DNA of 51,926 nt from Candidatus Giovannonibacteria bacterium RIFCSPLOWO2_02_FULL_45_28 (lineage in GTDB: Bacteria > Patescibacteriota > Minisyncoccia > UBA11713 > 2-01-FULL-45-33): assembly GCA_001780725.1 (NCBI GenBank), contig MFIM01000006.1, forward strand, positions 1-51,926, in the 5' to 3' direction. A program made the translations under genes and the position numbers. Of this stretch, positions 15,524 to 48,399 are shown piece by piece (within the stretch, counting starts at the first letter, position 1; every line of letters starts with the position of its first letter). Under the pieces are notes generated by a model. That model saw nothing but the letters and a program-made list of their open reading frames with translations, did not search any database and had not been told where the DNA came from.

Positions 15524-15563
15524 GACTTGCAACCTGATTGCTATAGCGCTCAAGTTGCAAATT
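15524..15563. repeat. 40-bp palindrome, copy 1 (AATTTGCA-N8-GCTATAGC-N8-TGCAAATT)
   Basis: gacttgca-acctgatt-gctatagc-gctcaagt-tgcaaatt. Confidence 0.8.
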
Positions 15564-15590
15564 GGTTTTACGCGGGTTATTATTAAGTTT

Positions 15591-16163
15591 ATGGCAAGAA
15601 GATCAAGATATTCAGAGATTAGATTGGGACCAACGGCCCAAAAGGTTTTGGTTTTACTCTTTGGCGGCCTGGCTTTGGGTTTGACTTCTTCTCCGGATAG
15701 ATATTTTCGCATAATCAGGACCATCAGGAAAGATTTTGAAAAAATAAACCGTTATGCGTTACACCGCACCATAAGAAATCTTTATCGTTCTAAATTGGTT
15801 AATGTCAAAGAAAATGCTGATGACACTGTCACCTTGGTTTTAACCGACAAGGGGAGGGTGAAAGCTCTAACTTATAATATAGAAAACGTTAATGTGCCGG
15901 ATATGAAGCGGTGGGATAAGCAGTGGCGGGTTGTAATGTTTGATATTCCGGAGCGCTACAAAAAACCTCGTGATGCTTTAAGCAAGACCCTTAAAAAAGC
16001 CGGTTTTTATAAGTTTCAGAAAAGTGTTTTTGTGCATCCGTTTGAGTGTAAGAACGAAGTTGATTTTGTGGTGGAATTTTTTAACCTGCGGCCATACGTG
16101 CGTTACATGTTGGCCAGTCATATTGATAATGAACTGGATATTAAACAACACTTTAATTTATAA
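15591..16163 (+). CDS. PaaX-like wHTH protein with C-terminal Cas2-like ferredoxin domain
   Basis: LTDKG wing; WDKQWRVVMFDIPE...RDAL...LKKAGF...QKSV; ATG 15591 preferred. Confidence 0.8.
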   Translation: MARRSRYSEIRLGPTAQKVLVLLFGGLALGLTSSPDRYFRIIRTIRKDFEKINRYALHRTIRNLYRSKLVNVKENADDTVTLVLTDKGRVKALTYNIENVNVPDMKRWDKQWRVVMFDIPERYKKPRDALSKTLKKAGFYKFQKSVFVHPFECKNEVDFVVEFFNLRPYVRYMLASHIDNELDIKQHFNL

Positions 16164-16259: not shown

Positions 16260-19200
16260 ATGAAAAACATAAAACTAGCTTTGGCGGGTGCGGTCTATTT
16301 CGGCCTTATTTCGGTCATTTTTACAGCTATGCCGCAGGCGGCAAGTGCGGCTCTTACCGAGAGCCAAATTCAGGCGATTTTGAGCCTGCTCCAATCGTTC
16401 GGAGCCGACCAGACGGTTGTCGGCAATGTTAACAGCTCTCTTCGCGGATTGCCGACAACGGGCGGGGGCGGCGGGACAGCCGCTTTTTGCCCTAATTTTA
16501 CCTACAATCTCTACCTCGGGCTCAACGATTCCGATACCGAAGGACAGGTTTCCAAGCTTCAAAAATTTCTAGCTCAAGACCAAACCGTTTATCCAGAAGG
16601 GACAATCACCGGCTTTTACGGACCCTTAACCGAGCAAGCGGTCAAACGTTGGCAGGCTAAAAACAGCGTGGTTTCTTCCGGCTCTCCTGATACTACGGGC
16701 TACGGCGTGGTTGGCTCAAGGACAAGAGAAAGAGTAAGAGCGAATTGCGGTTTTTCAACTCCGGTTCCTCCTACCCCAATTCCTCCTCCAAGCTCGTCAA
16801 ATCTCCCACCAGTCATCAGTGGAGTTTCCGGCCCAACAACTCTTAATACAGGCCAATCAGGAACTTGGACTGTAACTGCCCGCGACCCTGAAAACGGCCC
16901 GCTTTCTTACAATGTTGTTTGGGGTGATGAGAATGTTTACTCTGTTCCAACACTGGCGCCATCCGCATCCGCACCAGTCCAGCAAACCGCCACCTTTTCT
17001 CATACTTATTCCAGCTCCAGAGTTTATACACCCGTTTTTTACGTCACCGACAGCCAAGGCCTTTCCGCGAAAACCAGTTTAAGCGTTAATGTAGGCGGTA
17101 CTGTAACAACTCAACCCTCCATCACTGTTCTTTCTCCGAATGGAGGAGAGAGCTGGGCTGTTGGATCATCTCATGGTATTAGTTGGACGGATTCTAATTT
17201 GGGATCTTTGGGTATATCTATAACACTTGTAGATAGTGCTACGGGCGGACAAGTGTTCGCGCGCGATTTAGCGACAAATATAGGAAATAATAGATATTAC
17301 ACTTGGACCATTCCGAATGACGTGCCAGCAGGAAGCTATAAAATTAACATTTACACATCTGATTGTTGCAAACCGTCGGCATCAGATTCCAGCGACGCGC
17401 CGTTTAGTGTTACATCTCAAGCACAGCCGTTGGTAAAAATCACGTCTCCAGTCGCTAATTCAACTCTCACAAGCAAGAACATCACTGTTAGCGGAACGTG
17501 CTCAAACTATTTTGGTGCGGTGGATGTGTTTTATTATAGTGATAAAAAAGAAGAAGTATTTGTACAATGTATCTCTGGCAAGTGGTCAACAAATATTTCC
17601 GTAAACAGCAATGCCGGTTCCGGAAGTTTTGATTTATATGCCCAGCTGTATCCCAACAACACTTCAGTACAAGATATAATAAAACTTTATTTCAACTGGT
17701 CTAGCGCCCCCTCCATCACCGTTCTTTCTCCGAATGGAGGGGAGAGTTGGCAGATGCAGAATATCCATACCATTCGTTGGACGCCGTATGATCCAAACAC
17801 CGGCGTAAACTCTGCTGATAAAGTCACGGCTTATCTTGAAAGGTTGGAGGGCGGAAATTTTGTTACTGTAGGTAAAATAGTGCCTGCCGGCAAAGCATCT
17901 ATTCATTGGGCCGGAGAAATTGATCAGTTTGGCAAATATGCTTCCCCGGGTGATTACTACGTTCGGACTGTGAATAATATTACCGGCGCTTCTGATCGTA
18001 GCAATAACTCTTTTAAACTTGTCGATTTCGGAACAATAAAAGCCGATTTGAAAATCGGTGGTTTAGATGGTCCTATAACCGTGCCGCTGAGCGGCGGAAC
18101 GTATCAAGCGTCATGGACGTCAGTTAATGCCGATAAGTGCTTGCTCATAAATGGCACTCTTTCCACGTCTGATCCGGAATTTAATATACAAATGCCGCCG
18201 TTGGGTAGCAGAAGTATAAAATTATTCCCGGGCTTATATGGAGAATCTGGACGAGAAGGATATGTCACTATTTCTTGTACTGGCAGCACCAAAGTAGAAG
18301 GCGAAACATCTGATCAGGTCAAAATCCTTCCCGAAACATCAACTCCGTTTGTAAGGGTAGGAGTGCCTAATGGCAAAGAGATTATTGATTTCTCTAAACA
18401 ATATACGATCAGTTGGGCTTCTGCTGGTGTAGCCTATTTTAATATAGCGCTTTATAAAAATGACGCGTTTTTTAACTGGATAGCGTTTAATATTCCCGCA
18501 AGCCCATCCTATTACAACTGGACACCATCAAATACCATTTCTCAAGCCAATATTGGCAACGACGTTTTCAAAATATATATTCTTGGCTACAAAAAACCAG
18601 ATGGTGGGACGGTTGACGACAAAAGTGACGCGCCGTTTAGTATTGTGAGCGCGCAGAATGTGACAGCCACAGATTCCGACGCAAGCCCAAACTATTTAAC
18701 GACATCGCCGTATCCGGTTGAACAACGTCCCGACCTTTTTATATTGGGAGTTGCTAAAGGAACTTATGTCGGAGGTGGAACGTGTTTATACGGCACGGAA
18801 CCCAATCCTACATCATGCAAGCCAACTACGGATAATTTCACGACTTATTATGATCATTGCGCTAACGAGTCGCAATTAAATGAGGCGTATCTTACCGGAG
18901 ATGGAAAGTTTGGCGCTTACGGCGTTTCAGCGCCTAGCGGTTACGTTTGTAAAAATGGCATCTTAGTAAAAACAGTTTCCACCCAACCCTCTATCACCGT
19001 TGTTTCTCCGAATGGGGGAGAGAGCTGGCAGCAGGGCAGTCTTCAGACTATTCGCTGGTCAGCACCATCGTCATCCTCCTACGTTTCTATTTCTCTGATT
19101 GGATATTCCCAACCTTGCACGACAGAGCCATGCCCGCTTTACGCGGTACAAAGTTTTACATTAGGAAAGGCTCCGGCAAGCGGAGGATATTTTAACTGGA

Positions 19201-20444
19201 CTGTTGGAAAAGACATTAACGGCTACGCAATTCCCAGCGGACAATATCTTGTGCAGATTACTGATACGACAACAAACGCTTCAGACCAAAGCAACGCGCC
19301 GTTTAGTATTGTAGATGTTGTTACTGGTGTTCCGGATTTGACCATTACTAAGCTTTCTGTGTATAGAATGGATTCTCTCAATGTCGGAATTGATTATTGT
19401 ATAAAGAATATTGGGAATGCCGATGCGGGTAAATTTTATTTAGAATTTTACAACCTAGACAACCCCTCCTGGGGTTTTGGCGGAGCTGGCTTCGACTCGC
19501 TTGCTGTTGGAAAAGAATTTTGCAGTAAATCAAGCAGAAGTGGTGTTGGATCAAGCGGCGGCAACGGATATGTTCAAGGAAACAACAGAATCAAGGTCTT
19601 TGTAGACGCGAGATATGAAGTGAAAGAATCTAATGAAAATAATAATGAACTAACTTACACTTTTGACACAACACTGACTAGTCCTTCCATCACCGTTCTT
19701 TCTCCGAACGGGGGGGAGAGTTGGGCAGTTGGTTCGGTTCAAACAATTAAGTGGAATTCTACAGGAGTTGGCAAGATTTCCATTTGGCTTTGCAAATCCG
19801 GAGTTTGCGGGCGTTTTGGAAACATTCCTGCGACTGGCATAAATAATACGGGTTCTTACACATTCACTGTAGACACGAGCGTAACTCCCTTTGGGGCTTA
19901 TACGCCAGGTTCCGATCTGAAAATCAGAGTAGCGAGTGAAGATAACTATCCAACCTCCACTGTTTATGACGACAGCAACGCGCCGTTTAGTATTGTTGCC
20001 CCGAGTCCAGATTTAGTTGTTACCTCATTTAGCGTGCCAAGTGGAACGCTTGGACAGGTCGTGAACGCTTCCGCAACCATCTTAAATCAAGGTTCGGCCA
20101 GCACAGGTAGCGGCTTCAGAATAGAGATTGACTATAGCTATCCTCCCGACCTACCATGGGATTGTTCCTACGCGTCGCAGGGCTCTGCCAACACAGACGC
20201 CCTTGCAGTAGGAGCTTCCCGCACCGTTTCAATTCCGCTTACGTTGCCTTCCGTCCGAACCGGCCCTTTCAACGCTGTGATTATGGCTGATTCCGATTGC
20301 GCCATCAGCGAGTCAAATGAAGACAATAATTTCCGCTCTGCGACATATAGCGTTGCGTACAATTCTACGCTTTCCCCGAGCTTTTCAGGGATTGCAAATG
20401 TTCTTGAAGCCGCGAAGCCCTTGTGGTGGCCGACAGGATTTTAA
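16260..20444 (+). CDS. Large modular secreted/surface protein (peptidoglycan-binding, PKD-like, Ig-like repeats, CARDB)
   Basis: Signal peptide; VSKLQKFL...TGFYGPLTEQAVKRWQ; four SITV(L/V)SPNGGESW repeats closed by S(D/N)(A/N)(P/S)F; two PDL CARDB-like modules. Confidence 0.85.
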   Translation: MKNIKLALAGAVYFGLISVIFTAMPQAASAALTESQIQAILSLLQSFGADQTVVGNVNSSLRGLPTTGGGGGTAAFCPNFTYNLYLGLNDSDTEGQVSKLQKFLAQDQTVYPEGTITGFYGPLTEQAVKRWQAKNSVVSSGSPDTTGYGVVGSRTRERVRANCGFSTPVPPTPIPPPSSSNLPPVISGVSGPTTLNTGQSGTWTVTARDPENGPLSYNVVWGDENVYSVPTLAPSASAPVQQTATFSHTYSSSRVYTPVFYVTDSQGLSAKTSLSVNVGGTVTTQPSITVLSPNGGESWAVGSSHGISWTDSNLGSLGISITLVDSATGGQVFARDLATNIGNNRYYTWTIPNDVPAGSYKINIYTSDCCKPSASDSSDAPFSVTSQAQPLVKITSPVANSTLTSKNITVSGTCSNYFGAVDVFYYSDKKEEVFVQCISGKWSTNISVNSNAGSGSFDLYAQLYPNNTSVQDIIKLYFNWSSAPSITVLSPNGGESWQMQNIHTIRWTPYDPNTGVNSADKVTAYLERLEGGNFVTVGKIVPAGKASIHWAGEIDQFGKYASPGDYYVRTVNNITGASDRSNNSFKLVDFGTIKADLKIGGLDGPITVPLSGGTYQASWTSVNADKCLLINGTLSTSDPEFNIQMPPLGSRSIKLFPGLYGESGREGYVTISCTGSTKVEGETSDQVKILPETSTPFVRVGVPNGKEIIDFSKQYTISWASAGVAYFNIALYKNDAFFNWIAFNIPASPSYYNWTPSNTISQANIGNDVFKIYILGYKKPDGGTVDDKSDAPFSIVSAQNVTATDSDASPNYLTTSPYPVEQRPDLFILGVAKGTYVGGGTCLYGTEPNPTSCKPTTDNFTTYYDHCANESQLNEAYLTGDGKFGAYGVSAPSGYVCKNGILVKTVSTQPSITVVSPNGGESWQQGSLQTIRWSAPSSSSYVSISLIGYSQPCTTEPCPLYAVQSFTLGKAPASGGYFNWTVGKDINGYAIPSGQYLVQITDTTTNASDQSNAPFSIVDVVTGVPDLTITKLSVYRMDSLNVGIDYCIKNIGNADAGKFYLEFYNLDNPSWGFGGAGFDSLAVGKEFCSKSSRSGVGSSGGNGYVQGNNRIKVFVDARYEVKESNENNNELTYTFDTTLTSPSITVLSPNGGESWAVGSVQTIKWNSTGVGKISIWLCKSGVCGRFGNIPATGINNTGSYTFTVDTSVTPFGAYTPGSDLKIRVASEDNYPTSTVYDDSNAPFSIVAPSPDLVVTSFSVPSGTLGQVVNASATILNQGSASTGSGFRIEIDYSYPPDLPWDCSYASQGSANTDALAVGASRTVSIPLTLPSVRTGPFNAVIMADSDCAISESNEDNNFRSATYSVAYNSTLSPSFSGIANVLEAAKPLWWPTGF

Positions 20445-20511: not shown

Positions 20512-21483
20512 ATGGCAAAAATAGCGATTAACGGATTTGGGAGGATAGGGAGGTCGTTTTTCAAAGCCGCGTACGGAATGCCCGATTTTGGTATTGTAGC
20601 GATTAACGACTTGGCGGATGAAAAAACACTTAAGTATCTCTTAAAATACGACTCGGTCTACGGGCGTTATTTAAAGGAGCCGCATGGCGTCCAATTTTTG
20701 GCGGAAAAAGATCCGGCTAAGCTCCCGTGGAAAAAATTAGGGATTGACGTGGTTGTGGAATCCTCCGGTTTTTTTACAACTTCGGAAAAAGCCAAAGTGC
20801 ATTTGGATGCCGGAGCGAAAAGAGTAGTGATTACAGCTCCTGCGACCGGAGATGTGGTTACGGCTCTTGTGGGCGTGAATGACGACCTGTTCAAAAAAGG
20901 CCATCCGCTAACTTGCAACGCTTCCTGCACTACAAATTCTGTGGCGCCTGTTTTGAAAGTTCTTCTGGAAAATTTCGGCATTAAAAAAGCGGCGATGACG
21001 ACCGTGCATGGTTATACGGCGACTCAAAAATTAGTTGACGGGCCGGATTCCAAAGATCCGCGCCGCGGGCGGGCAGCCGCTTTAAATATTGTTCCTTCCA
21101 CGACCGGCGCGGCGGAAGCGGTGATTCAATCAATTCCGGAGCTTGCAGGAAAATTCCAGGCGGAATCAATACGCGTGCCGGTGATTACCGGCTCTATCAG
21201 CGTAACCACAGCATTGGTTGAGAAAAAAACCACTCGCGAGGCGGTAAATGATGTTTTCAAAAAAGAAGTGGCGAAACCCCGCTGGGCGCATGTTTTGAAA
21301 GTAACTGAAGATCCTATCGTTGTTACAGATATAGTGGGCGAACCCTACGGCGCGATAGTTGACACGACGCTCACGCAAGTTTTGGGAGGTGATTTGGTGA
21401 AAGTTTTCTCCTGGTACGACAACGAAGCCGGCTACACCGCGACATTAATGGAGCATGTAAGAAGAGTGGCCGAAGGATTATGA
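20512..21483 (+). CDS. gap: Glyceraldehyde-3-phosphate dehydrogenase
   Basis: INGFGRIGR, NASCTTN, WYDNE. Confidence 0.97.
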   Translation: MAKIAINGFGRIGRSFFKAAYGMPDFGIVAINDLADEKTLKYLLKYDSVYGRYLKEPHGVQFLAEKDPAKLPWKKLGIDVVVESSGFFTTSEKAKVHLDAGAKRVVITAPATGDVVTALVGVNDDLFKKGHPLTCNASCTTNSVAPVLKVLLENFGIKKAAMTTVHGYTATQKLVDGPDSKDPRRGRAAALNIVPSTTGAAEAVIQSIPELAGKFQAESIRVPVITGSISVTTALVEKKTTREAVNDVFKKEVAKPRWAHVLKVTEDPIVVTDIVGEPYGAIVDTTLTQVLGGDLVKVFSWYDNEAGYTATLMEHVRRVAEGL

Positions 21484-21788
21484 AAAAATTTTTACCGTTT
21501 TTTGGCATTTTATTATGTTTGACTGGCGGCATTTTACTGGCGTATTCTAGCGCGTGGTATTTTAGTAAAACACACACTGATCCAAATACAAATAATCTTA
21601 CTTTTGGGTTAGTTCCTATTTTCTTTATTGGTATCGCATTGGTTTATTTTCTTCTAAAAATGTTTTTCCCAGAATTTATTAGCAATGAAGAACACCGCGC
21701 AGTATTTAAACCGGCTACTAGAAAACGGTGGATTATTTTAATAATCATTATATTTGTTATCCTAAGTTATCTAGCTGGCGTAGAATAG
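21480..21788 (+). CDS. Small membrane protein (accessory)
   Basis: Three hydrophobic helices; ATGA-coupled to gap. Confidence 0.7.
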   Translation: MKKFLPFFGILLCLTGGILLAYSSAWYFSKTHTDPNTNNLTFGLVPIFFIGIALVYFLLKMFFPEFISNEEHRAVFKPATRKRWIILIIIIFVILSYLAGVE

Positions 21789-21797
21789 ATCTGTGAT

Positions 21798-21848
21798 ATG
21801 AAAATCTATATTGGAGCGGATCATGCGGGGTTTGAGTTGAAATTTTAA
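21798..21848 (+). pseudogene. rpiB 5' stub 1
   Basis: MKIYIGADHAGFELKF*, versus true RpiB MKIYLGADHAGFELKE. Confidence 0.85.
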
Positions 21849-21871
21849 TAAGAATATGATATAAATTAAAT

Positions 21872-22066
21872 ATGGCGCTAAAATTAGACGATAGAAAAAT
21901 AAAGCTTCTGGTTAAAGAGGGCGTAAAAGAGGCCATGGATTCTCAATTTATGAAATTGAGCGCATTATTGTTGCCGCACGTATCGCCAAAAGAACAGAAA
22001 GAAATCGTAAGGCTTTACGGAAGGCCATCAAGAAGGGTTGCTAAAAGTTATATTATTAAAGCATGA
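21872..22066 (+). CDS. Small protein, probable antitoxin
   Basis: 64 aa; ATGA-coupled to a RelE-like ORF. Confidence 0.55.
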   Translation: MALKLDDRKIKLLVKEGVKEAMDSQFMKLSALLLPHVSPKEQKEIVRLYGRPSRRVAKSYIIKA

Positions 22067-22218
22067 CATGGCTGGTAAATTTTTCTGCGCAGGCAGAAAA
22101 ATTTTTGGAACAGCAACAAATTCCGAAAGATGGCGTTTATGAACTGGTTCAGAAAGCATTGATGAGATTTCGAAACCCAATTAATGGTCAATCTACAGAA
22201 GAAGATAGAAACAACTAA
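22063..22218 (+). pseudogene. Truncated RelE/ParE-like toxin
   Basis: MTWLVNFSAQAEKFLEQQQIPKDGVYELVQKALMRF then unrelated tail and stop; C-terminal half absent. Confidence 0.5.
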
Positions 22219-22223
22219 AAATT

Positions 22224-22628
22224 ATGATCGAAACTATTTTATCTCCTATCAGTTTTATCGCGGCTCTTTATTTTGTTTTTAATTTGATTACATGGATAGC
22301 GTGTAGGTTCGGCGACTCTATTTGTCAAGAAAGCTTTCCAGTAATTTCTCTTGGTGTGTTGGTTGTTTCGGAAACACTAAGGAGGTGGTCTAAAAGTAAA
22401 ATCCGCCAAAAAGAGTTCGGTTGGGAGAAAAAATTCTTTTTGAGACTTATTCCGGCCCTAATTTTAAATCTCATCTTTTGGATAGGCGCTTGGGGTAATC
22501 CTTACGCATATACATATCTTGTGCTTATACCTTATATTTCCTTAAATGGTTTTTACTTGTTGTTCATAATTGCTAAGGCTATAGAAGATCATAAAATTCA
22601 AAATGAAACGCCGCTTCGCATCAATTGA
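22224..22628 (+). CDS. Membrane protein (accessory)
   Basis: About four TM segments. Confidence 0.7.
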   Translation: MIETILSPISFIAALYFVFNLITWIACRFGDSICQESFPVISLGVLVVSETLRRWSKSKIRQKEFGWEKKFFLRLIPALILNLIFWIGAWGNPYAYTYLVLIPYISLNGFYLLFIIAKAIEDHKIQNETPLRIN

Positions 22629-22642
22629 TTATATAGAGCGTA

Positions 22643-23158
22643 ATGTCATTTTTTCGTCCAAATTGTTCTCTTATCATTTCGTTACTGATTTGTATTGCTC
22701 TGATTGGCTTGACCTATTTTTATTATTTGAACATAAAACCTACCCAAGTTTTTAGTAGTAATTGTTTAAATCAGAATGCAGATAAAAATCCGCAGGAACT
22801 GGTTAAAAATGTTATAATTGAATTTGAGGAAGCCCAAATTCTCGGTGATCAGCGCGCTTTATCGGATTGCGTCTCGCCGTCGCTGGATTTAAGCTTTTTG
22901 AGAACTCCTACCAATCGCGGTCTCGGTTGCTATACTGAATGTGTAGGGCCTGTTTATGAAATAGTGTATGTTCAACAAAGCGGCTCTGACGAATACATTG
23001 CGGATGTAAATGAAAAGCGCCGGTTTTATAGCCCGGGTATCGGCGGGGGCTCTTATCCCGAAGCAACGGTTCCGGTAAAGTTTGTTTTAAAGAAATTTAA
23101 TAATCAATGGCTTATTACCAGTTATAATACTAAACTGTCCCATTCCTACGGTGAATAA
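22643..23158 (+). CDS. Membrane-anchored exported protein
   Basis: N-terminal TM; NTF2-like C-terminal pattern (KFVLKKFNNQWLITSY). Confidence 0.6.
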   Translation: MSFFRPNCSLIISLLICIALIGLTYFYYLNIKPTQVFSSNCLNQNADKNPQELVKNVIIEFEEAQILGDQRALSDCVSPSLDLSFLRTPTNRGLGCYTECVGPVYEIVYVQQSGSDEYIADVNEKRRFYSPGIGGGSYPEATVPVKFVLKKFNNQWLITSYNTKLSHSYGE

Positions 23159-23180
23159 TAATTGAGCTAATAACAATCTT

Positions 23181-23240
23181 ATGAAAATCTACATCGGAGC
23201 TGACCATGCGGGATTTGACGTGCTTTTAATAAATTTTTAA
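23181..23240 (+). pseudogene. rpiB 5' stub 2
   Basis: MKIYIGADHAGFDVLLINF*. Confidence 0.85.
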
Positions 23241-23249
23241 TATATAAAT

Positions 23250-23516
23250 ATGCCAAAAGAAATAACAAATGATGAATTAGCGCGGATGATTGCCAAAGGA
23301 TTTGATGATATGGGCAATCGTTTTAAGGAAACAGCTTCAAAAACCGATACCGAGCATTTAAAGTTGCGGGTAGATCATATAGATGCCACATTAAGCGTTA
23401 TGAGCAGGGATGTTGCTGATATTAAGAAACATTTTGTTTACAGAGATGAATTTGAGGATCTTATGGCTCGCGTAAAATATCTTGAAACAAAGTTGGACGT
23501 AGAAAGCGGAAAATGA
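23250..23516 (+). CDS. Small coiled-coil hypothetical protein
   Basis: ITNDELARMIAKGF...LMARVKYLETKL. Confidence 0.7.
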   Translation: MPKEITNDELARMIAKGFDDMGNRFKETASKTDTEHLKLRVDHIDATLSVMSRDVADIKKHFVYRDEFEDLMARVKYLETKLDVESGK

Positions 23517-23611
23517 CTACTACTTTAAAAGTTTTTAGCTGGTACGACAACGAAGCCGGATACGCGGCTACTTTAGTTGAGCATGTTAGAAGGGTGGCAG
23601 AGAATTTATGA
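23513..23611 (+). pseudogene. gap 3' stub forming a 32-aa mini-ORF
   Basis: MTTTLKVFSWYDNEAGYAATLVEHVRRVAENL*, versus gap VKVFSWYDNEAGYTATLMEHVRRVAEGL*; ATGA overlaps at both ends. Confidence 0.9.
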
Positions 23612-23892
23612 GCGAACCAAATTTAATAATTCAGATAATAAGTTGGACTTTGGTTCTAATATCGCCATATCTGATTGCAAGTTTTGCTACTCAGTTTTCC
23701 ACAAAATGGGTTAGATATTTTGGTGCTATGGCTGGCTCCATGGCATGTGTTGCGATTTTGTATTTTCTTTTTGGTAAACTTGGATTTCTTGCGGCAAATC
23801 CATCGGCCCTAGTAGTCTTTTTTATTCTTTTGCCGCTTTCTATACTTATACCATTCGCAGTTATATCAACTTACGAAAGTCATCAAAGATAA
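23608..23892 (+). CDS. Small membrane protein (accessory)
   Basis: Three TM helices; ATGA-coupled to the gap stub. Confidence 0.7.
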   Translation: MSEPNLIIQIISWTLVLISPYLIASFATQFSTKWVRYFGAMAGSMACVAILYFLFGKLGFLAANPSALVVFFILLPLSILIPFAVISTYESHQR

Positions 23893-23902
23893 TTTATTTC
23901 CG

Positions 23903-24346
23903 ATGAAAATTTATCTTGGCGCTGATCATGCGGGGTTTGAGTTAAAAGAAACTCTAAAAAAGTTTCTTTTAGAGTTAGGCCACGAGGTTGAGGACAAAGG
24001 CGCGTTTAAATATGAGCCGGAGGATGATTATCCGGATTTTATCTTGCCAGTTGCGAAAGCAGTAGAGCAGAGTCAAGGAGCGAAAGTTCGAGGGATAGTT
24101 ATCGGCGGTTCCGGTCAAGGAGAAGCAATGTGTGCGAACCGTGTCCGAGGCGTTCGTACCGCGGTGTACTACGGAGGTGATTTTGAAATTGTGCGGCTTT
24201 CCAGGGCACATAATAATGCGAATGTTTTGGCGTTGGGAGCGCGAATGATGGATGACGAACTTGCCAAAAAGGCAGTGAAGCTGTGGTTGGAAACTCCGTT
24301 TGATGGTGGACGGCACCAGCAGAGAATTGAAAAGCTAGATGTTTAA
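23903..24346 (+). CDS. rpiB: Ribose-5-phosphate isomerase B
   Basis: GADHAG, DDYPD, GGSGQG, HNNANVL, GGRH. Confidence 0.95.
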   Translation: MKIYLGADHAGFELKETLKKFLLELGHEVEDKGAFKYEPEDDYPDFILPVAKAVEQSQGAKVRGIVIGGSGQGEAMCANRVRGVRTAVYYGGDFEIVRLSRAHNNANVLALGARMMDDELAKKAVKLWLETPFDGGRHQQRIEKLDV

Positions 24347-24477
24347 GTATACACAGTTTTTTTATCGAGCGAGCTTGTATTATTTTTGCTTTCCTCGCGG
24401 CTGCGAAGCGCAGCCCTCGGGGTTGCCTGCTGGCAAAACCCGCAAAAACAACACAAGCTCGCTCTTGTGTTATACTT
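24345..24477. repeat. MITE-like or structured element with nested inverted repeats
   Basis: aagtatacaca / tgtgttatactt and gagcgagcttgt / acaagctcgctc enclose two inner hairpins. Confidence 0.65.
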
Positions 24478-36163: not shown

Positions 36164-37423
36164 ATGGTCCACGAAATTGTAATTGTCGGCGGGGGGTTTG
36201 GGGGAGTGAGGACGGCAAAGATTTTGTCAAAATGGGCCGGAGGAAGCAATCACCATATTCACATTACTTTAATAGACAAAAGCCGCTACCATACTTTTTA
36301 CCCCAATCTTTACGAGGTGGCGACGGCTCACCTGCCGGAGGTTTTCGGGCATCTGCCGGTGAATTTTTTTGATTTGAAATCGTCCGCTATCTGTCCGCTG
36401 GAGGACATTTTTTTGGATGACCTTAATGTAACCGTTTTAGAGAGCGAAGTTCTTGGGGTTGATTTTAAAAAGCACAAAATTGAGCTTAAAAACGCCTCGG
36501 CTTTGCATTACGATATTTTGGTTTTGGGCGCAGGCAGTGAGACCAATTATTTCAATATCGCTGGTATGGAAACGCACGCGTTGCCGCTAAAGAACTTTTT
36601 TGACGCGCTTAAAATAAGAAACGCCGTGGACGAAGCTTTTTACAGAATCCCGAAAAACCAACTGGTCAAGGTTGTTATTGGCGGCGGAGGATTTACCGGT
36701 TGCGAGCTGGCTGGCGAACTTATCGGCTACATGAAAAAGCTTGCCAAAATTCACGGCCACCCGGAATATTACGCGGAATGTTTGATTGTTGAAGCGGCGG
36801 AGTCGCTTTTGGGGAGCGCAAGTCTGTGGATACAGAAGCGCGCCAAAGCGCGGCTTGAAAGTTTGGGCGTCAAATTTAAGTTTAAAAGCGGAATAAAAGA
36901 TGTTGAGGACGGCGAAGTTGTTTTGGCGGACGGATCAAGAATTCCTTATGACGTGCTTGTCTGGACAGCCGGCGTGAAGGCGAATGATCTGGCCAAAACG
37001 CTTTTCGGAGTGAAGCTTGAAAAAGGATCATGCCTTATGGTTGATAAACATCTTCGCATAATGCCTTACGAAAATGTTTTTGGAGTGGGGGATATGACTT
37101 ATTGCGTTGACGAGTCAACCGGAAAATCTCTGCCGATGACCGCCTCGGTTGCAATACGCGAAGCAAAATATGTTGCCAAGAATATCAAGAAAATGATTTT
37201 AAAAAAACCGCTTATAGATTATAAGCCGTACCACGCCGGATTCGTTGTGCCGTTGGGGGGCAAATACGCCATTATGGAAATCGGCGGCTTGCGGCTTTCA
37301 GGATTTTTGCCTTGGGCGTTGAAGCATTTGGTTTCTCTGCACTATTGGAACGAGCTAATCGGCTGGAGACGCGCACTCGGCATATGGAAACGGGGCCTCC
37401 GGATTTACACGGAGAACGATTAG
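36164..37423 (+). CDS. ndh: Type II NADH dehydrogenase-family FAD oxidoreductase
   Basis: GGGFGG, GGGGFTGCELAGE, VWTAGV, FGVGD. Confidence 0.85.
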   Translation: MVHEIVIVGGGFGGVRTAKILSKWAGGSNHHIHITLIDKSRYHTFYPNLYEVATAHLPEVFGHLPVNFFDLKSSAICPLEDIFLDDLNVTVLESEVLGVDFKKHKIELKNASALHYDILVLGAGSETNYFNIAGMETHALPLKNFFDALKIRNAVDEAFYRIPKNQLVKVVIGGGGFTGCELAGELIGYMKKLAKIHGHPEYYAECLIVEAAESLLGSASLWIQKRAKARLESLGVKFKFKSGIKDVEDGEVVLADGSRIPYDVLVWTAGVKANDLAKTLFGVKLEKGSCLMVDKHLRIMPYENVFGVGDMTYCVDESTGKSLPMTASVAIREAKYVAKNIKKMILKKPLIDYKPYHAGFVVPLGGKYAIMEIGGLRLSGFLPWALKHLVSLHYWNELIGWRRALGIWKRGLRIYTEND

Positions 37424-44557: not shown

Positions 44558-44588
44558 ACCCCCACACCAAAGTTTTTGGTGTGGGGGT
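44558..44588. repeat. CCCCACACCAAA-type palindrome, intergenic
   Basis: acccccacaccaaagtttttggtgtgggggt. Confidence 0.9.
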
Positions 44589-44694
44589 TTACATCCCCGA
44601 TTTGCGAGAATATGCCAACCTATAAACTTATTTATCTTGAGCGTAGTCGAAAGACCCCACCCCGCTACTCACTATTGTTTGAAAATACAAACTA

Positions 44695-44915: not shown

Positions 44916-45758
44916 ATGAAAAGCACAATCCAAAGCGGTCTCTGGAAAGTAGAGTTCGGTGAGCTTGGGGCTACCCTCAAGGTGCTCCAAGACCACGGCG
45001 TCACCCCTGACCATCTGGCGAGGCTTCGTGCCGAGCCCGACTACGCCAAGCGGGTGGCGGAGTTCATGCTCCGAGGCGGTCTCGACGCCTCCATCCATCA
45101 GAAGCTCGCCCGTGCAGTCATGGGCAAGGACTTCTTTGGCGTGGAGGACTGGTCAGCTCTCTACGGCGTGAACTTCAGTCAGAAGCAACTCCGTCAAGTC
45201 GCCGAGTTCCCGTGGGGTGAGGACATTCTCAACTCCACCTGCCCGCTTTGTGGCAAGGTGGTAAAGGACTGCCACTTCGCCTTCGTGGGGCTCGACCGCA
45301 TCAACGGCAAGCCGCTCACCATCCTGAAGTTGCAGGAGCTTCATCCTGCCACGGGGCAACCGAAGTTTCACTCCTACACGAGTGCGTGGTATTCCGAACA
45401 GAAGTTTGCGAGGGAGACCACGATGAGCTTCAGGTGGTATCTGCTCCATCAGAACATCGTCCCGAAGTCGGAGGACAAGACCTACGACGACCAGAAGGCG
45501 ATGCTCACTGCCGACTACGAAGTGCCGTCTGCCGTGACCGAGTCCACGAAAGACCTGCTCGTGTTCCGTAAGACGGGCAACTTCGTGAACTCCTCACGGT
45601 ATGCTCGTTGCGAATGTGTCGCTTCGGTCGGCCGCCGTGTCGATGTCGGCTACTTCGGCGAGAGCGGGCTCGTTGTCTACAGCTACTGGGGCGGCGGCCA
45701 CCGCTGCGGCATCGGTCTGGCCGCCTCTCGGAAGTTCCCCGCAGCTCAGCGAAGCTGA
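44916..45758 (+). CDS. DGR target protein with C-terminal variable region (CLec-fold expected)
   Basis: C-terminus contains the VR; ends GLAASRKF; visibly GC-richer than its flanks. Confidence 0.9.
   Translation: MKSTIQSGLWKVEFGELGATLKVLQDHGVTPDHLARLRAEPDYAKRVAEFMLRGGLDASIHQKLARAVMGKDFFGVEDWSALYGVNFSQKQLRQVAEFPWGEDILNSTCPLCGKVVKDCHFAFVGLDRINGKPLTILKLQELHPATGQPKFHSYTSAWYSEQKFARETTMSFRWYLLHQNIVPKSEDKTYDDQKAMLTADYEVPSAVTESTKDLLVFRKTGNFVNSSRYARCECVASVGRRVDVGYFGESGLVVYSYWGGGHRCGIGLAASRKFPAAQRS
45615..45731 (+). repeat. DGR variable repeat (VR)
   Basis: 117-nt ungapped match to TR; all 22 mismatches lie opposite TR adenines. Confidence 0.95.
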
Positions 45759-45766
45759 GTGCGGGG
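45737..45766 (+). other. Post-VR hairpin (retrohoming hairpin/cruciform candidate)
   Basis: ccccgca-g-ctcagc-GAA-gctgag-tgcgggg; followed by five CTTGA repeats. Confidence 0.7.
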
Positions 45767-45812
45767 CAGGCTGAACCTTGAAGTCTTGAGGGCTTGACTC
45801 TCTTGAACCCTT

Positions 45813-45849
45813 GAGCCTCCGTCCGATTTTTTTCGGCGGAGGCTCTTTT
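45813..45849 (+). terminator. Terminator after the DGR target
   Basis: gagcctccg...cggaggctc-tttt. Confidence 0.75.
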
Positions 45850-46126
45850 CTTTTGTTTTTCAAAAAGTTATTCTGTAAATGTTCTGCTAATGCAGGTGCG
45901 GCTACGGTTTCACCTCGCAGAACATCTCATCTTTGAGATTTCACCAGAGTATCGTCGCCTACGGGTTACGATAGCGTGTGAACCAGATGGAGATAGAACT
46001 TCTTGCTCATCTTTAGCGGAGGTAGCGAAAACATCGCTTGCTCCCGAATAAAATACAGGAAAGAGAGGATATAAGCCTTTGGCAGTAAACCTCAATTTCC
46101 AGTGTCACGGACGAAGATGGGCAAAC

Positions 46127-46243
46127 TATGTCACTTCGGACGGCAACCGTGTCAATGTCGGCAACTTCGACGAGAACGGGCTCAATGTCAACAACTACTG
46201 GGACGACAACCACAACTACAACATCGGTCTGGCCGCCTCTCGG
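46127..46243 (+). ncRNA. DGR template repeat (TR)
   Basis: AAC-rich in-frame copy of the VR; 31 adenines. Confidence 0.95.
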
Positions 46244-46262
46244 CAGTCATTCTCCGTCAATT

Positions 46263-46292
46263 TGAAATACCCTCCTTTCCGAGGGTATTTCA
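46263..46292. terminator. Hairpin between TR and the avd stop
   Basis: tgaaataccctc-ctttcc-gagggtatttca. Confidence 0.65.
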
Positions 46293-46643
46293 TTTAACGC
46301 TCTTGGTTGACCTAATCCATCCGCCAAGCTGTCTTCCTATTTCATCAACCGTCTCCTGCCACTTAATATATTTATTGGCATCAATAACTTTTACTTCTTT
46401 GCAAAGCCGTAAAAACACTCGCAGAAAGTTTAGTTTGATGCTGATTTTTTCTAACACAGGCAGTTTCTCGGCCTTTGAAAGCTGGCTTGCCCAAAGTAGA
46501 TTTTCCAGCACATCCAAAGTAATGTTTTCGCATCTCTGCCAAAGCGTGTGGCGGTCTTGTTTCTTAACATTATTTCGGTAAGAATAAAACTCCTTATACA
46601 GCTCGTAAGTTATTTTGAAAATTGGTATATCAAAATCATCCAT
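46290..46643 (-). CDS. avd: Accessory variability determinant (four-helix bundle)
   Basis: IPIFK.TYELYK...KQDRHTL...LNFLRVFLRL...VDEIGRQLGGW; adjacent to TR. Confidence 0.88.
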   Translation of the reverse strand: MDDFDIPIFKITYELYKEFYSYRNNVKKQDRHTLWQRCENITLDVLENLLWASQLSKAEKLPVLEKISIKLNFLRVFLRLCKEVKVIDANKYIKWQETVDEIGRQLGGWIRSTKSVK

Positions 46644-48222: not shown

Positions 48223-48251
48223 ACCCCCACACCAAATTTTGGTGTGGGGGT
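48223..48251. repeat. CCCCACACCAAA-type palindrome, intergenic
   Basis: acccccacaccaaattttggtgtgggggt (perfect arms). Confidence 0.9.
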
Positions 48252-48399
48252 TCACGCATTTAGAACCGCAATTTGGCAGATTCCCGGTAACATTTCTCCA
48301 TTCAAGATCGTGAATTACTGGTAGGGTTACCCCGAATTACGAGCTGTGTGCCCCCGTGGCAAGAGTTTGCCGCCAGGGCACAGCTTTGTACCCCTTGTA

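Follow-up and report, generated by a model that had tools for sequence, protein, structure and literature searches.

Accessory genes interleaved with pieces of gap and rpiB in a sugar-metabolism operon of Patescibacteria: a candidate accretion hotspot without a dedicated recombinase

Staphylococcal cassette chromosome (SCC) elements accrete in tandem at the 3′ end of rlmH, and toxin–antitoxin cassettes stabilise large integron arrays. Arrays of orphan modules in type VI secretion system (T6SS) effector–immunity clusters of Vibrio cholerae, and the displacement of C-terminal parts in Rhs and contact-dependent inhibition (CDI) systems, have been ascribed to homology-facilitated illegitimate recombination (PMC5361080). 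Hotspots that lack mobile elements turn over through recombination in the flanking core genes and are enriched in transformable species (PMC5635113), and in Streptococcus pneumoniae transforming DNA integrated between chromatids has been shown experimentally to yield tandem duplications (PMC3784515). The locus described here lies in a stretch of 51,926 nucleotides (contig MFIM01000006.1, analysed over its whole length and referred to below as the window) from Candidatus Giovannonibacteria bacterium RIFCSPLOWO2_02_FULL_45_28, a very small bacterium of groundwater that belongs to the Patescibacteriota. The interval between gap, which encodes glyceraldehyde-3-phosphate dehydrogenase (GAPDH), and rpiB, which encodes ribose-5-phosphate isomerase B, holds seven accessory open reading frames (ORFs), two short copies of the rpiB start and one short copy of the gap end. 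These copies are referred to as stubs. No description of such stub arrays in Patescibacteria was found in literature searches.

The locus resembles the T6SS, Rhs and CDI arrays in that horizontally acquired, heterogeneous modules lie beside a conserved anchor, with anchor remnants of other lineages between them and older modules apparently pushed downstream together with their gene-end remnants; in both cases duplication alone is no explanation and no recombinase appears to be involved. It differs in its anchors, because in those systems the anchor is the conserved part of a toxin gene, on one side only, and the cargo consists of immunity genes, whereas here two housekeeping genes anchor both sides of an interval in a central-metabolism operon. 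The remnants here also alternate, permuted around a second class of module, and are kept as coupled mini-ORFs. With the hotspots free of mobile elements (PMC5635113), for which naturally transformable bacteria are the expected setting, the locus shares a variable interval between core genes, fast turnover among close relatives and the lack of an integrase, but replacement there is scarless and proceeds by double crossover, while here it is additive and leaves duplicated, diverged pieces of core genes. In tycheposons (10.1101/2020.12.28.424599) and Salmonella genomic island 1 (SGI1), cargo is likewise separated by partial copies of the target, the element brings a replacement gene end and integrase-less members exist. 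Those elements depend on a defined core site and on a recombinase of the tyrosine or serine type, whereas here no recombinase was found, several gene termini are duplicated and the boundaries vary. Integrons hold small promoterless cassettes in one orientation at a fixed, expressed site, and all ORFs of the present array share one orientation, several of them being coupled by ATGA overlaps. However, both of the intervening modules in the window carry promoter-like sites (no commoner than in shuffled sequence), no IntI, attI or attC hairpin is present, and the elements between cassettes are pieces of the neighbouring genes. Folding of the stub and junction regions as DNA, on both strands, gave nothing resembling attC (z −1.2 to +1.3 against shuffles). 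The term 'integron-like', used in the preliminary description of this DNA, therefore holds as an analogy only.

Both core genes and all features of the array lie on the forward strand. The gap gene (20512–21483; 323 residues; Pfam Gp_dh_N, E 6e-29, and Gp_dh_C, E 9e-50) ends in an ATGA at 21480, where its stop codon overlaps the start of a 102-residue ORF, and the resident rpiB (23903–24346; 147 residues; LacAB_rpiB, E 9e-46) closes the interval. The first rpiB stub (21798–21848; nhmmer E 9e-11) is a mini-ORF of 16 codons, MKIYIGADHAGFELKF followed by a stop codon, whose initial 15 residues match the start of RpiB except at one position, the homology covering 15 codons (21798–21842). The second (23181–23240), found by repeat search and nhmmer, reads MKIYIGADHAGFDVLLINF up to its stop codon, with homology over 12–13 codons (23181–23219). 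The gap-end stub (23513–23611; nhmmer E 2e-25) is an in-frame mini-ORF of 32 codons, MTTTLKVFSWYDNEAGYAATLVEHVRRVAENL with its stop codon, and its terminal 27 residues are those of the GAPDH C-terminus (homology 23528–23611). Taking stub 1 as reference, the three 45-nucleotide (nt) copies of the rpiB start (at 21798, 23181 and 23903) are 78 and 89 % identical, and the two 84-nt gap ends, of which the reference copy in the direct-repeat search is the last part of gap itself (21400–21483), are 80 % identical. The rpiB starts and gap ends are the top direct-repeat families of the region in a repeat finder. A window-wide scan for direct repeats of at least 32 nt within 8 kb revealed no further stub pairs; all it returned besides were repeats within a surface protein, the repeat pair of a retroelement and a family of short palindromes. 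ATGA overlaps occur at 21480, 22063, 23513 and 23608, and G+C content falls from 0.46–0.53 within gap to 0.31–0.39 over the interval. The array punctuated by stubs is thus present as the preliminary description had it, including the order of its genes, the break of both rpiB copies near codons 13–15 and the ATGA coupling of the gap stub on either side (23513 and 23608). Rfam and tRNA scans returned nothing within or near the array, indicating that there is no tRNA-type attachment site there.

Two types of slot alternate in the arrays of the window and its relatives, a regularity that had been missed in the earlier account. Slots that run from a gap end to an rpiB start contain small hydrophobic proteins of 62–134 residues with one to four transmembrane (TM)-like segments, the exception by size being one window slot that also houses a 171-residue protein with one such segment. 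Slots that run from an rpiB start to a gap end contain a soluble connector, which is either a probable toxin–antitoxin pair or an 88-residue coiled-coil gene. TM-like segments were predicted in every cargo protein of the first type of slot and in none of the connectors.

The first cargo protein of the window (21480–21788; 102 residues; three TM-like segments; G+C 0.32) is of one family with the 96-residue cargo of two related arrays (L002 and L119; 40 % amino acid identity), where the relatives sit behind a gap stub at another array position; the family is thus first in the window, third in L002 and second in L119. The second slot of this type contains a 134-residue protein (22224–22628; three TM-like segments), which starts in an ATGA context, AAAATTATGA, that resembles a gap end, followed by the 171-residue protein (22643–23158; the TM-like segment N-terminal), whose family is rare (14 clusters per 1.84 billion representatives). 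A third, degenerate gap stub was considered at 22179–22202 and is not claimed, the match reaching p 0.014 against one copy alone, the resident one, and nhmmer giving none. The last cargo protein (23608–23892; 94 residues; three TM-like segments) is an orphan whose sole database match is a 99 % identical variant of itself, so a search for its donor found none. None of the seven accessory ORFs had a Pfam or NCBIfam match above threshold, and the cargo genes inside one array are unrelated to each other.

Connector A consists of an antitoxin-like ORF of 64 residues (21872–22066; no Pfam match), whose stop overlaps by ATGA the start of a toxin-like ORF of 51 residues (22063–22218). Only the initial 38 residues of the latter match complete proteins of 89–90 residues (P0033 and P0034; 79–82 % identity), indicating that the gene is truncated. 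It had been described as a broken toxin; the breakage is borne out, but the identity as a toxin is weak. The Pfam match to HigB_toxin reached no better than E 0.27, an AlphaFold model (predicted local distance difference test score 62, low confidence) has the order β-α-α-β-β-β, and a fold search ranked RelE top without significance (E 0.57). A RelE/HigB-type toxin would accordingly be a weak assignment for the full-length partner. The pair as a whole is a probable toxin–antitoxin system, because overlapping pairs of 64 and 90 residues exist and the equivalents in relatives are unambiguous AbiEii, MNT/HepT and PIN systems.

Connector B is the 88-residue coiled-coil gene (23250–23516), the stop codon of which overlaps the start of the gap-stub mini-ORF. 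Its family is restricted to Patescibacteria (31 clusters) and was not found in viral contigs. Central 21-nt (heptad) repeats vary in number between homologues of 63–138 residues (for example L094 6087–6191, L099 4415–4494, L133 363–442 and L135 3313–3417) while the termini are conserved, and by sequence the family looks like a coiled coil of variable length. The possibility that this gene is itself a mobile element that duplicates its target was rejected, as the gene has no flanking repeats at 14 other loci, where it lies among different genes, only its own internal 21-nt repeats, in addition to its absence from viral contigs.

Most connectors open with an AT-rich promoter-like stretch. In the first (21832–21860), a −35-like TTGAGT, formed by rpiB codons 12–14 of stub 1, is followed 17 nt on by a −10-like TATGAT, and this junction is also present in L144. 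In the second (23215–23243), a −35-like TTGACG at the end of stub 2 is followed at the same distance, 17 nt, by a −10-like TAATAT, with the ATG of the 88-residue gene another 6 nt downstream, a layout that recurs in L118 and twice in L002. Altogether, five junctions show this pairing of a −35-like hexamer, provided by rpiB codons 12–14 (TTTGAG or TTTGAC), with a −10-like hexamer at a distance of 17 nt. The gap stubs that were examined, six in number, all keep an open, in-frame sequence; each begins with an ATG overlapping the stop codon of the gene before it (ATGA or TGATG) and finishes at or next to the start of the following cargo gene.

A GAPDH scan, with one genome per species, placed the window among Parcubacteria. 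The closest GAPDH record was that of GW2011_GWC1_45_13 (L001; 94 % amino acid identity), followed by Giovannonibacteria and their allies (63–73 %). Among Parcubacteria, gap is followed by rpiB in 30 loci, with a spacing of 12 nt to 5 kb, which indicates that this junction is variable across the class, and about one-third of these loci hold one or more unrelated genes in between. Scans for motifs of the gap end and the rpiB start, and nhmmer profiles of both, found stub copies only in the closest clade; further arrays were found by searches seeded with the 88-residue protein, the truncated 51-residue protein and GAPDH variants. The comparison of gap–rpiB intervals that the preliminary description had proposed gave variable cargo and stubs of these two genes in at least six other lineages.

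These relatives range from an empty site to arrays of several units. In a complete Giovannonibacteria genome of 651 kb (L149), gap and rpiB overlap by ATGA, and in L108 a single gene of the 88-residue family separates them, with no stubs. Insertions that duplicate only one terminus occur in three arrangements. In L001 and L153–157, gap is overlapped by an rpiB stub that precedes a 69-residue ORF, an AbiEii toxin and rpiB (in L001 the two rpiB starts share 40 nt without mismatch and 42 of 43 in register); in L118 it is overlapped by an rpiB stub that precedes a gene of the 88-residue family and rpiB; and in L008 it is followed by a VapB/PIN pair, a gap stub and the next gene. The larger arrays duplicate both termini. 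L144 comprises gap, a 123-residue membrane protein, an rpiB stub, an intact pair of 64 and 90 residues, a gap stub, a 77-residue membrane protein and rpiB. L119 and L120, which are from the same genome, comprise gap, an rpiB stub, a gene of the 88-residue family, a gap stub, a 96-residue membrane protein, another rpiB stub, an MNT/HepT pair and rpiB. L002 has three stubs of gap and three of rpiB, and in one case a stub of each is fused directly to the other with about 15 nt of filler. The interval of the window and that of L001 differ wholly in content although gap is 88 % identical between them at nucleotide level, so turnover between the two core genes is high, and it occurs without mobile-element genes.

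Stubs are not confined to gap and rpiB. At the rpe/tkt junction of L120 (7768–8545), a copy of about 38–40 nt of the tkt start (74 % identical to the resident start) is followed by a 67-residue ORF, a 184-residue nucleotidyltransferase (DUF6036/DUF2204, AbiEii-like) and the intact tkt. Separately, a 108-residue membrane protein and a gene of the 88-residue family lie between pfkB and fba in L100 (2691–3480), without stubs, at a junction where the two genes overlap directly in the window; the same gene types thus recur at a second tight junction of the sugar-metabolism cluster.

Exact-protein look-ups of three cargo genes of the window returned at least 24 long contigs each, with identical gene order throughout. 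The contigs read were GenBank LCIN01 and MFGY01 and European Nucleotide Archive (ENA) assemblies of other samples, produced by several assemblers. No presence/absence variants within the species were seen among these contigs, which show the same order only, and there is thus no evidence of ongoing mobility. The arrangements of L002, L001 and L144 were likewise recovered from multiple contigs (at least 24 for L002).

The stubs differ from the resident genes mostly at synonymous sites, as had been noted. Over 20 aligned codons, the gap stub of the window has 8.8 synonymous and 5.2 non-synonymous differences from its resident gene, while rpiB stub 1 has five differences (four synonymous, one non-synonymous) and stub 2 has eight (six and two). 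Counts were then pooled over arrays, each stub being compared with the resident gene of its own genome and tested against neutral expectation. The 10 rpiB pairs gave 32 synonymous and 20 non-synonymous differences (synonymous divergence, pS, 0.44; non-synonymous divergence, pN, 0.06; binomial p 2e-11) and the seven gap pairs gave 48.3 and 19.7 (pS 0.55; pN 0.07; binomial p 3e-16). Since divergence dominated by synonymous changes arises within a working gene, the stubs appear to derive from functional orthologues of other lineages, as first proposed. Similarities to particular relatives agree with this: the gap stub of the window matches the gap end of L118 at 88 % identity and its own resident gap at 80 %, and the first 30 nt of rpiB stub 2 are 97 % identical to the L118 stub and to the resident rpiB start of L108, against 80 % for its own resident. 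The ends of the rpiB repeats spread over nt 30–46 and the gap repeats are about 50–84 nt long. Some stubs are decaying, namely gap stub 1 of L002 (four amino acid changes and an early stop) and two degraded rpiB stubs (stub 3 of L002 and stub 2 of L119).

Sequence tracts shared between arrays indicate that modules move between lineages. The 96-residue cargo of L119 and L002 has about 96 % nucleotide identity over the ORF, compared with 76 % for gap and 71 % for rpiB, and the tract of high identity breaks off in the flanking stubs, no more than about 10 nt from either end of the ORF, in line with the suggestion that gene termini serve as anchors. Between the window and L118, the segment 23179–23305, which comprises stub 2, the promoter-like region and the N-terminus of the 88-residue protein, is 92 % identical (gap 83 %, rpiB 73 %). 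From the toxin–antitoxin connector, the window and L144 share a block of 379 nt (the stub with its promoter-like site, the first gene and the N-terminus of the toxin) at 82.9 % identity (gap 71 %, rpiB 70 %).

The arrangement had been explained by simple stacking of fragments made up of a gap end, a gene and an rpiB start. This is insufficient, as every connector shows the permuted order, with an rpiB start before a gap end, which indicates that insertion duplicated the target and did not merely replace it. Replacement by double crossover, the accepted model for hotspots free of mobile elements (PMC5635113), accounts for the swapping of cargo but not for its stacking. Neither the cargo nor the 49 large ORFs of the 52-kb window gave a match to any integrase, transposase or recombinase family, in keeping with the earlier label 'integrase-free', and no integrase, resolvase or transposase family was found in any related array examined. 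A site-specific system is unlikely, given the lack of a recombinase, the three different duplicated termini (rpiB start, gap end and tkt start), the variable boundaries and the lack of folding. On balance, the gap/rpiB junction in this clade of Parcubacteria is somewhat more probably than otherwise an accretion hotspot run by the general recombination of the host, without a dedicated recombinase.

The ground state under host recombination would be the ATGA overlap of gap and rpiB, or gap, one small gene and rpiB. Modules would arrive from other lineages together with a donor gap end (about 50–85 nt) and/or a donor rpiB start (about 30–46 nt), these arms being the most conserved stretches that adjoin the junction (WYDNEAGY..HVRRV and MKIYxGxDHAGF). 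DNA would enter by natural transformation; natural competence and recombination have been shown in Saccharibacteria (PMC10633639 and preprint). Duplication could follow from a single crossover with a circularised fragment, or from transformation with linear DNA when the two ends of the fragment pair with sister chromatids. The second route has its likeness in the merodiploidy of S. pneumoniae (PMC3784515), where non-collinear pairing of the donor leads to tandem duplication with the donor junction in the centre, which is the geometry needed to obtain an rpiB start, a connector and a gap end in that order. The systems differ in scale, as the pneumococcal repeats are the size of insertion sequences (about 1 kb, 96 % identical) and 100–900 kb is duplicated, whereas here the arms would measure 30–85 nt and the duplicated unit a few hundred bases. 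Rare illegitimate joins would create the initial stub boundaries. Once present, stubs would be relics of earlier events and would serve as portable homology arms, making cargo swappable between diverged lineages. They would also keep the operon translatable, the gap stubs as in-frame coupled mini-ORFs, and the final codons of several rpiB stubs may supply a −35-like hexamer to the connector. Toxin–antitoxin connectors would favour retention, the toxin of the window having since been truncated.

Several observations weigh against this explanation. Gene order is invariant in all long contigs, and nothing was seen of a recombination intermediate, a circular form or a presence/absence polymorphism. 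At 30–85 nt and 10–25 % divergence, the arms are poor substrates for RecA in model bacteria, and the origin of the initial illegitimate joins at the stub boundaries is left unexplained. The rpiB and tkt stubs mostly end about 38–46 nt from the ATG, whereas plain homologous recombination predicts no such clustering, which could reflect a mechanism that measures distance, descent of the junctions from a common ancestor or selection that favours the −35-like element; the element itself suggests that selection lies behind it. The promoter scan of the region found promoter-like sites no commoner than in shuffled sequence. The stub comparisons are short and mutually non-independent, and a recombinase gene may lie elsewhere in the genome, the search having covered the 52-kb window. 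Confidence is held only slightly above even by the lack of an intermediate or polymorphism, the short, diverged arms and the unexplained clustering of stub ends.

Within this framework, it is tentatively proposed that connectors with an rpiB-start left arm and a gap-end right arm constitute a distinct mobile element without a recombinase. Such an element, once taken up as DNA, would invade a naive junction by micro-tandem duplication, through permuted arms near the minimal length for recombination, and would open slots for small membrane-protein genes. If true, this would amount to a platform that extends itself and does the work of an integron, with only the recombination of the host and fragments of housekeeping genes to build it. 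From the stub of the tkt start it seems that such a platform can arise at other operon junctions of Patescibacteria.

An alternative that shares most features of accretion by host recombination reverses the order of events. A micro-tandem duplication from the gap end to the rpiB start would have occurred in situ, before and independently of any incoming DNA, with the slots later overwritten by double crossover with alleles of other lineages and connectors inserted afterwards at the joint between stubs. The direct fusion of an rpiB stub and a gap stub in L002, where filler takes the place of a connector, is what this order of events would leave, the mismatch-free 40-nt rpiB repeat of L001 is as expected of a fresh local duplication, and replacement of cargo with breakpoints at stubs is documented. 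The connectors would still require an insertion mechanism, however, and the cargo genes within one array are mutually unrelated. Divergence of the stubs is mainly synonymous, and the same stub–connector junctions occur in arrays that otherwise differ (the 88-residue gene in the window and L118, the toxin–antitoxin pair in the window and L144), which indicates that stub and connector travel together. Duplication in situ as the first step is therefore considered rather unlikely.

A recombinase acting in trans is less probable still. The stubs would then be attL/attR-type sites of small, integrase-less mobilisable elements that target the rpiB start or the gap end and bring a replacement copy of it, successive integrations pushing older elements inward, as for islands at tRNA genes, the trmE 3′ end and the dusA 5′ end. 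Tandem accretion, partial target copies and degenerate elements all have precedent in tycheposons (10.1101/2020.12.28.424599), and SGI1 targets the trmE 3′ end (PMC6531882). The inserts here are indeed flanked by direct repeats of a gene terminus, of which the diverged copy restores the gene, the L001 repeat is identical over its 40 nt, and the stubs of rpiB and tkt extend about equally far from the ATG. However, the duplicated targets are three unrelated sequences, the repeat boundaries vary (rpiB nt 30–46; gap about 50–84 nt), and a single att site would not leave connectors flanked in permuted order by an rpiB start and a gap end. With no integrase, resolvase or transposase family in the window or the arrays examined, the only related match is a weak Y1_Tnp-like (IS200/RAYT-like) gene just upstream of gap in L144 (2316–3050) and L149 (4930–5649), flanked by palindromes CCACTTGGTAACC(C/G)GGTTACCAAGTGG; it is not in the window, and the site in L149 is empty.

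It is highly improbable that the stubs are primarily functional parts, that is, coupling ORFs and promoter pieces selected for expression of the accessory genes, whose protein-like conservation would come from selection on the mini-ORFs and not from foreign origin. The consistent open frame and start overlap of the gap stubs (six of six) and the −35/−10-like pair at 17 nt from rpiB codons 12–14 in five junctions are compatible with such a role. It would account for retention but not for origin, a coupling ORF has no reason to retain the amino acid sequence of GAPDH, and some stubs are clearly decaying (gap stub 1 and rpiB stub 3 of L002, rpiB stub 2 of L119). Finally, a chimeric contig that joins strain variants at short common sequences, which was a concern for a metagenome-assembled genome with repeats of 40–84 nt, near typical k-mer sizes, has a negligible probability, since the window copies (78–89 % identical) are too diverged to collapse in an assembly graph and the same array was present in at least 24 long contigs of independent assemblies from several samples and assemblers.

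Other features of the window lie outside the array. Between rpiB and rpe, a repeat search identified a long inverted repeat (24367–24464; 23-nt arms, 91 % complementary, with a 52-nt spacer), which had no Rfam match and could mark the end of the transcription unit, as a terminator or structured element. Directly upstream of gap, a secreted or surface protein of 1394 residues (16260–20444) has four internal repeats (CARDB, Kre9_KNH-type) and a peptidoglycan-binding domain. It is preceded by a 202-residue PaaX_M/Cas2-like protein (15555–16163; PF20803, E 4e-21; CRISPR_Cas2, E 2e-5), and the window's large ORFs include no other cas genes; in L149, a PaaX_M gene of similar kind comes after the operon. 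Parts of a diversity-generating retroelement occupy 44916–46643. A 119-nt variable repeat (45617–45735) lies at the 3′ end of a 280-residue ORF, the template repeat is at 46129–46247, with the visible core mismatches at adenines of the template copy, and a bAvd-like gene (PF22296, E 6e-16) lies on the minus strand (46290–46643); no reverse transcriptase was identified among the large ORFs of the window. A short palindromic family similar to repetitive extragenic palindromic (REP) sequences, CCCCACACCAAA..TTTGGTGTGGGG, is intergenic (44561–44592 and 48224–48255, with a weaker copy at 37065).

Patescibacteria have tiny genomes in which few mobile elements can be recognised, and the means by which they acquire accessory genes are poorly understood. 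The present locus preserves a legible history of recurrent gene gain within an operon that is essential and highly conserved. Related lineages supply the empty site, single insertions and multi-unit arrays. The stubs provide a simple sequence signature by which such hotspots could be mapped genome-wide, and the arm lengths hint at how genetic tools might be designed for naturally competent Patescibacteria. If host recombination suffices, short conserved gene ends would offer docking sites that work universally among lineages 25–30 % apart in sequence, toxin–antitoxin pairs would spread without plasmids, phages or integrases, and small membrane proteins, perhaps of the cell surface or of host interaction, would be shuffled as cassettes.

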